Assembly: GCF_044324785.1 (NCBI RefSeq)
Contig: NZ_CP172127.1
DNA from: Escherichia coli
GTDB lineage: Bacteria > Pseudomonadota > Gammaproteobacteria > Enterobacterales > Enterobacteriaceae
Length of the DNA stretch: 64,000 nucleotides
Reading direction: 5' to 3' (one strand)
Part shown: piece by piece, positions 21,012 to 21,383 of the stretch
Position numbering within the stretch: the stretch's first letter is position 1
How the letters are laid out: the number at the start of each line of letters is the position of its first letter
Translations under genes and position numbers: made by a program
Notes under the pieces: model-generated
Told to the model about the DNA's origin: nothing
What the model saw: only the letters and a program-made list of their open reading frames with translations
Databases searched by the model: none

Positions 21012-21086
21012 TCCCCTTTCCTGTTTTCCTAATCAGCCTGGCATTTCGCGGGCGATATTTTCACAGCCATTTTCAGGAGTTCAGCC

Positions 21087-21383
21087 ATGAACGCTTATTA
21101 CATTCAGGATCGTCTTGAGGCTCAGAGCTGGGCGCGTCACTACCAGCAGATCGCCCGTGAAGAGAAAGAGGCAGAACTGGCAGACGACATGGAAAAAGGT
21201 CTGCCCCAGCACCTGTTTGAATCACTCTGCATCGATCATTTGCAACGTCACGGGGCCAGCAAAAAAGCCATTACCCGTGCGTTTGATGACGATGTTGAGT
21301 TTCAGGATCGCATGGCAGAACACATCCGGTACATGGTTGAAACCATTGCTCACCACCAGGTTGATATTGATTCAGAGGTATAA
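21087..21383 (+). CDS. gam: Gam (RecBCD inhibitor), short GamS form
   Basis: 98 aa [39 protein letters not shown]..., matches remembered lambda Gam. Confidence 0.85.

Follow-up and report, generated by a model that had tools for sequence, protein, structure and literature searches.

Two forms of the lambda Gam protein, a long one (GamL) and a short one (GamS), were described by Wilkinson et al. in 2016, who solved the complex formed by GamS (PMC5218532). Expressed from pBAD, both forms potentiated quinolones, with GamL sometimes slightly more effective (PMC5218532). The deposited structures, 5MBV for RecBCD-Gam and 2UUZ/2UV1, represent the 98/99-residue form of the protein. In the lambda records NC_001416 and J02459, GamL corresponds to a frame of 138 aa, of which the C-terminal 98 residues (41-138 of NP_040618) constitute GamS. 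Reviews repeat that Gam has two isoforms, presumably originating from two start sites. The Gam purified in the 1970s is said to have had a subunit of about 16.5 kDa, which is closer to GamL and would favour the presence of GamL in lambda. Our literature search found no paper on the distribution of the long gam frame. The "GamL" of PMC12315714 was discarded as evidence because of a name clash, this being a different protein, from phage phi80.

Here we analyse a gam locus of Escherichia coli in a window of 64,000 nucleotides, that is, the whole stretch of DNA under study (contig NZ_CP172127.1). The window was aligned with lambda (NC_001416, gam 32816-33232), with Stx phage 933W and with PhiR30_1. 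An initial annotation of the locus had noted a 98-aa Gam open reading frame matching lambda GamS, and it had suggested decay or deliberate loss of the long isoform through a stop codon and a frame change upstream.

Results

A 98-codon gam gene in a Red-type recombination module

The gam gene of the window (21087..21383, + strand) encodes a predicted RecBCD inhibitor of 98 aa, the length of GamS. Its product matches Pfam PF06064 (Gam) over 1-98/98 (215 bits against a cut-off of 25 bits; E 1e-64) and PHROG 259, likewise over 1-98/98 (E 3e-60), and each of these two family models has 98 positions. It also matches PDB 5MBV and 2UUZ over its full length (E 6e-61). By comparison to residues 41-138 of lambda Gam, 95 of 98 positions are identical, in agreement with the initial annotation, and the three substitutions are conservative (L22I, S61A and E74D in GamS numbering). 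A Shine-Dalgarno sequence, AGGAG (21075..21079, +), is positioned 7 nt 5' of the ATG at 21087. Directly downstream lie bet, encoding the Red-beta single-strand annealing protein (21389..22174, +; PHROG 252, E 1e-128), and exo, encoding lambda exonuclease (22171..22851, +; PHROG 149, E 2e-66), which places gam in a Red-type recombination module of the order gam-bet-exo. The Shine-Dalgarno sequence, the spacer, the ATG and the gene order are common to the window and to the lambda GamS locus. The two loci differ upstream, where lambda has kil and a leader containing a run of three T (hereafter T3), whereas the window has a KilR-type gene and a leader with a run of four T (T4).

In 205 IMG/VR loci encoding 57 distinct Gam proteins, the exact Gam protein of the window, with Asp at residue 74 (FQDRM), did not occur. 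The commonest Gam protein among these loci differs from that of the window solely by Glu at residue 74.

A KilR-type gene at the position of lambda kil

At the position of lambda kil, and unrelated to it, the window carries a gene for a putative KilR-type cell-division (FtsZ) inhibitor of 68 aa (20805..21011, +), assigned on the basis of family models and PGAP naming. This gene has AGGAG 5 nt before its ATG, shares its frame with gam and terminates at a TAA (21009-21011). Its product matches PHROG 294, "Kil protein for bacterial septation inhibition" (E 1.3e-37), and there was no match in the Pfam copy used. In a genome with an identical 141-nt junction, PGAP gives the corresponding 207-nt gene, which has the same 75-nt spacing from gam, the name "phage encoded cell division inhibitor protein". 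KilR of the Rac prophage is alike in size (about 68-73 aa), in its membership of PHROG 294 and in its place immediately upstream of recombination genes. The match to NCBIfam NF008465, "FtsZ inhibitor protein" (E 1.8e-17), reaches 63 bits and thus stays under the 92-bit cut-off, suggesting that the gene of the window is a relative of Rac kilR rather than its equivalog.

Homology between the window and lambda stops upstream of about 21005. Phage 933W, which has 98% DNA identity with the window in the gam region from 21005 onward, differs from it by carrying lambda-type kil and cIII upstream. The kil and kilR inhibitor modules appear to have been exchanged at a conserved junction just before gam, located at about 21005 in the window, because the same alternation is found upstream of Salmonella gam homologues (locus L234 versus locus L235).

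Two independent changes preclude the long form

The kilR-gam intergenic leader comprises 75 nt (21012..21086, +), is non-coding here and, starting at about 21005, shows homology to the lambda kil-gam leader. According to haplotype tables, its C-run (21013..21016, +) varies in length among related phages, with TCCCC in the window, CCCCC in lambda and 4 to 7 C in others. The T4 run (21070..21073, +) corresponds to T3 in lambda, a 1-nt indel (window GCCATTTTCAGGAG versus lambda GCTA-TTTCAGGAG) in which the window has one extra T, 14 nt before the ATG and directly 5' of the Shine-Dalgarno sequence. This extra T shifts the lambda-like upstream codons out of the gam frame. Codons 14-37 of lambda GamL thus have homologous DNA in the window, at 21005-21075, in a frame other than that of gam.

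Reading upstream in the gam frame, there is a TAA 57 nt before the ATG (21030..21032, +) and a second TAA at 21009-21011, which is the stop codon of the KilR-type gene. The former is an in-frame stop in 115 of the 123 T4 entries listed, comprising IMG/VR loci together with the window, 933W and PhiR30_1. Lambda contains the same TAA trinucleotide, but out of frame, since cCTAATCagc is read there as L-I-S. The stop at 21030-21032 reported by the initial annotation is therefore real, and the concern raised with it, that lambda might have the same stop, does not apply. The alignment to lambda that it had proposed for finding the indel did locate one. The frame change, however, is not further upstream, as had been supposed, but consists of the single extra T at 21070-21073.

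The ATG of lambda GamL is located 46 nt inside lambda kil. It has no counterpart in the window, because kil is replaced by the KilR-type gene upstream of about 21005, and the window lacks this start codon along with the first 13 or so codons of GamL. No ATG, GTG or TTG opens any frame across the 75-nt spacer 21012-21086, including the part between the TAA at 21030-21032 and position 21087, and the lambda sequence ATGGATATTAAT is absent. In lambda itself, the GamL ATG is not preceded by a Shine-Dalgarno sequence (CGACGCTTATAAAAAATG). The long form is thus precluded twice independently in the window, by the T4 allele, which brings a TAA into frame 57 nt upstream, and by the replacement of kil.

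A consensus scan alone identified a weak, terminator-like hairpin of 5 pairs within the leader (21036..21053, +), followed by GATATTTTCA. Its counterpart in lambda is GCCCG...CGGGC, and a G-U pair in the stem of the window replaces a G-C pair of lambda. We take this to be the position where the lambda tL2 terminator cluster is mapped; the lambda record J02459 has no terminator features annotated in the kil-gam region. The predicted fold of 21005-21110 was like that of shuffled sequences (z -1.04), an Rfam scan of 19500-22500 gave no match over the leader, and the promoter/terminator consensus scan found no promoter-like site on the + strand. An Rfam match to isrJ RNA at 20273-20354, outside the leader, was rejected as being at chance level (E 0.92; 21 bits against a gathering score of 37 bits).

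The long frame is open in a minority of lambda-like loci

IMG/VR was scanned with two exact patterns of 34 or 35 nt, which differed only in the length of the T-run, yielding at least 120 contigs with T4 and 107 with T3. Loci with 200 nt or more of sequence before the gam start, 227 in all, were classified. The T4 counts are lower bounds, and all of these counts hinge on exact pattern matching and on collections in which E. coli isolates abound. Lambda kil was combined with T3 in 96 of 227 loci; the GamL frame was intact in 84 of them, with the ATG at -120, and broken in the other 12 by a C5-to-C4 contraction of the C-run. A KilR-type gene with T3 was found in 11 of 227 loci, where the frame is open for 78-183 nt and has no start codon. 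Among the T4 loci listed, at least 34 have lambda kil, including the 933W type, and are all closed by the TAA at -57, and at least 86 have a KilR-type gene, again with the GamL frame closed. The exact configuration of the window (KilR-type neighbour, T4, stop at -57) was present in at least 54 loci and is the most frequent single configuration. An intact GamL frame occurs in at most 37% of the IMG/VR loci with this gam start (84/227, an upper bound). In 226 loci, T4 was always linked to GCCA and T3 to GCTA.

The 141-nt junction segment of the window (20990-21130; leader and gam start) was found in 3,140 of 5,426 complete E. coli genomes, and its best match was at least 99% identical in 1,103 complete E. 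coli records. A junction of the lambda-kil type was present in about 1,391 complete E. coli genomes. These genome figures are approximate because T3 and T4 were read from identity bands and not as exact alleles. The T4 allele is carried by 933W, PhiR30_1 and many complete E. coli genomes. The gam of Stx phage 933W and the 98-aa protein named "host-nuclease inhibitor Gam family protein" by PGAP share with the window both the T4 allele and the annotated length of 98 aa. PGAP calls a 297-nt (98-aa) gam even on a chromosome that is 100% identical to lambda across the GamL start.

Divergent Gam homologues are of GamS length

When 5.8 billion proteins were searched with lambda GamL as the query, clusters of 138-aa Gam were found only at 96% identity to lambda or above. 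Every Gam homologue at 72-92% identity, from E. coli, E. albertii, Salmonella, Citrobacter and Raoultella, has 97-100 aa. In Salmonella, as in E. coli, the module upstream of gam is polymorphic, with a lambda-Kil gene in some cases and a KilR gene in others. The Salmonella homologues (72% protein identity) keep TTCAGGAGTTCAGCCATGAACGC exactly, the remainder of the leader being unalignable, and their leaders contain in-frame stops at -72 or -93; in RecE-linked E. coli gam, the in-frame stop is at -9. Outgroups retain the Shine-Dalgarno sequence and the short-form ATG, and the rest of the leader is not conserved in them. In the few outgroup bases that can be aligned (ACCAAATTCAGGAG), the spacing is that of the T4 allele, and the C of that allele is found in place of the T of lambda, which is weak evidence that T4 may be older than T3.

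Both Salmonella leader types, L234 and L235, contain a conserved in-frame ATG 42 nt upstream of gam (ACATGTTG, ACATGGTG). It would add 14 residues and has no obvious Shine-Dalgarno sequence, and gene callers take the 98-aa start. At a locus with a divergent E. coli gam (L231-L233; 81% identity, N-terminus MSTCPIFDR), a 684-aa RecE-type (PF06630) gene overlaps gam by 23 nt. Here gam is followed by bet and exo, resulting in a module with both RecE-like and lambda Exo nucleases.

Databases also contain Kil-Gam fusions of 171-213 aa (P0002, P0005-P0008), created by additional frameshifts of 1 nt, as in ...DAYKK|MDINTE... at an A-run. These are mostly from Logan read assemblies and may be assembly errors or real variants. 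Such fusions fit an indel-prone kil-gam junction.

Constraint on gam and variability of the leader

The gam gene has exactly 98 codons in 206 of 209 complete copies, essentially without indels, and its variants (47 synonymous versus 63 non-synonymous types) show an excess at third positions. The leader (about 80 nt) contains two length-polymorphic homopolymer runs, and 28 of 83 columns are variable, about 31 columns being fixed by the search pattern itself. In the intergenic part of intact GamL haplotypes there are 4 synonymous and 3 non-synonymous variants with respect to the GamL frame, numbers too small to decide; they may be taken as a weak, non-significant hint of constraint on that frame. 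Diversity of the gam body was 0.018 within T3, 0.022 within T4 and 0.021 between them, with 7 nucleotide haplotypes shared. Given the equal diversity and the shared haplotypes, the gam coding body does not co-vary with the presence of the extension, and for the same reasons diversity was set aside as a clue to the relative ages of T3 and T4.

Other features of the prophage

A tyrosine integrase gene (24328-25491; PHROG 10426 and PHROG 1) ends 15 nt from a tRNA-Arg(TCT) gene on the minus strand (25507-25583), and phage matches end near 25500-25560. This is probably the attachment end of the prophage, with host DNA beyond it. Between the CI-like repressor gene and kilR, the region 19536-20255 holds two genes without known function, of 87 aa (PHROG 4231) and 147 aa (PHROG 3556), in the place of lambda N, ral, sieB, ea10 and cIII; genes resembling N or cIII were not recognised in this region. 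A strong terminator-like hairpin (20330-20353, +; 9 pairs, 6 of them G-C, with a T-rich tail) is positioned between the 147-aa open reading frame (19812-20255) and kilR. The sub-threshold isrJ match, itself probably due to chance, overlaps this hairpin.

Discussion

We conclude with high confidence that the window contains a standard gam of a lambdoid E. coli prophage, encoding 98 aa from its own strong ribosome-binding site and lacking the long form. This arrangement is ordinary and already known, and 98 aa is the proper annotation of the gene. In the prophage, gam would be transcribed from an early leftward promoter downstream of the CI-like repressor gene (18698-19453, PHROG 4), as part of a presumed early leftward operon of the order repressor, two unknown genes, kilR, gam, bet, exo and int. 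Translation is expected to start at the ATG at 21087, directed by AGGAG, and to yield the 98-residue protein. Because this protein is 97% identical to the form solved both alone and bound to RecBCD, it most likely works like GamS. Sequence similarity thus predicts that Gam of the window binds and inhibits RecBCD, most likely by dimerising and acting as a DNA mimic that plugs the DNA-binding channel of RecBCD (mechanism as in PMC5218532). With RecBCD blocked, linear phage DNA would be shielded while Red recombination and rolling-circle replication take place.

Only some lambda-type leaders carry the 138-aa frame, a variable trait that is peculiar to lambda and its nearest relatives. The state of the window is common and not a lesion of its phage, and it is probably the older of the two states. 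The earlier suggestion of decay or deliberate loss was correct in that only the short form can be encoded and that an indel is involved. It is not supported in taking the long form as the norm, since that form is found in at most 37% of loci and divergent homologues have 97-100 aa. We lean, by a narrow preference, to the view that lambda GamL is a young, lineage-specific extension, generated when, within a leader that did not code for protein otherwise, a 1-nt T4-to-T3 contraction, linked to a C-to-T substitution, fused gam to an ATG inside kil by coincidence.

The opposite direction of change, in which the long frame is ancestral to the lambda-type leader and was lost here via the T insertion and the replacement of kil, appears unlikely. 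It would account for a clean 138-aa frame in lambda and 84 IMG/VR loci and would agree with 4 of 7 intergenic variants being synonymous in the GamL frame, and GamL expressed from a plasmid is active (PMC5218532). However, the extension is absent from all homologues below about 92% identity, and T4 is at least as frequent as T3. The spacing between CCA and the Shine-Dalgarno sequence in outgroups, on few alignable bases, fits T4 and not T3. Changes in the C-run, changes in the T-run and module exchange have each broken the long frame independently, and the lambda GamL ATG lacks a Shine-Dalgarno sequence.

Two further explanations have, in our judgment, hardly any probability. An error of sequencing or assembly in a truly lambda-like sequence could produce a difference of one base in a homopolymer run, but the same allele is present in at least 120 IMG/VR contigs, in 933W and PhiR30_1 and within a segment at least 99% identical in 1,103 E. 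coli records over 141 nt, it is perfectly linked to the neighbouring C/T substitution, and the start codon is missing even with T3 once kil is replaced, as in the 11 KilR-type T3 loci. A longer Gam made by recoding, through a frameshift at the T-run or read-through of two TAA codons from kilR, could draw on the shared frame of kilR and gam, interrupted only by TAA 21009-21011 and TAA 21030-21032, and on the T4 run just before the Shine-Dalgarno sequence, but past its last stop the frame with the lambda-like codons lacks any ATG, GTG or TTG, the leader yielded no stimulatory structure, and indels vary freely in it. To our knowledge, there is no precedent for read-through of a double TAA of this kind.

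If GamL is indeed a young extension, then the window would represent the ancestral state, and GamL would be dispensable, naturally polymorphic and possibly little or never translated. It may nonetheless be a functional extra in the phages that have it. By the distribution reported here, it is lambda, and not the phage of the window, that is the unusual one. The frame behind the textbook statement that Gam comprises GamL and GamS, which recent papers repeat, is open in only a minority of naturally occurring lambda-like phages, and no divergent homologue has it open. This has consequences for the transfer of the 138-aa annotation of lambda gam to other genomes and for the way in which results from GamL constructs are read.
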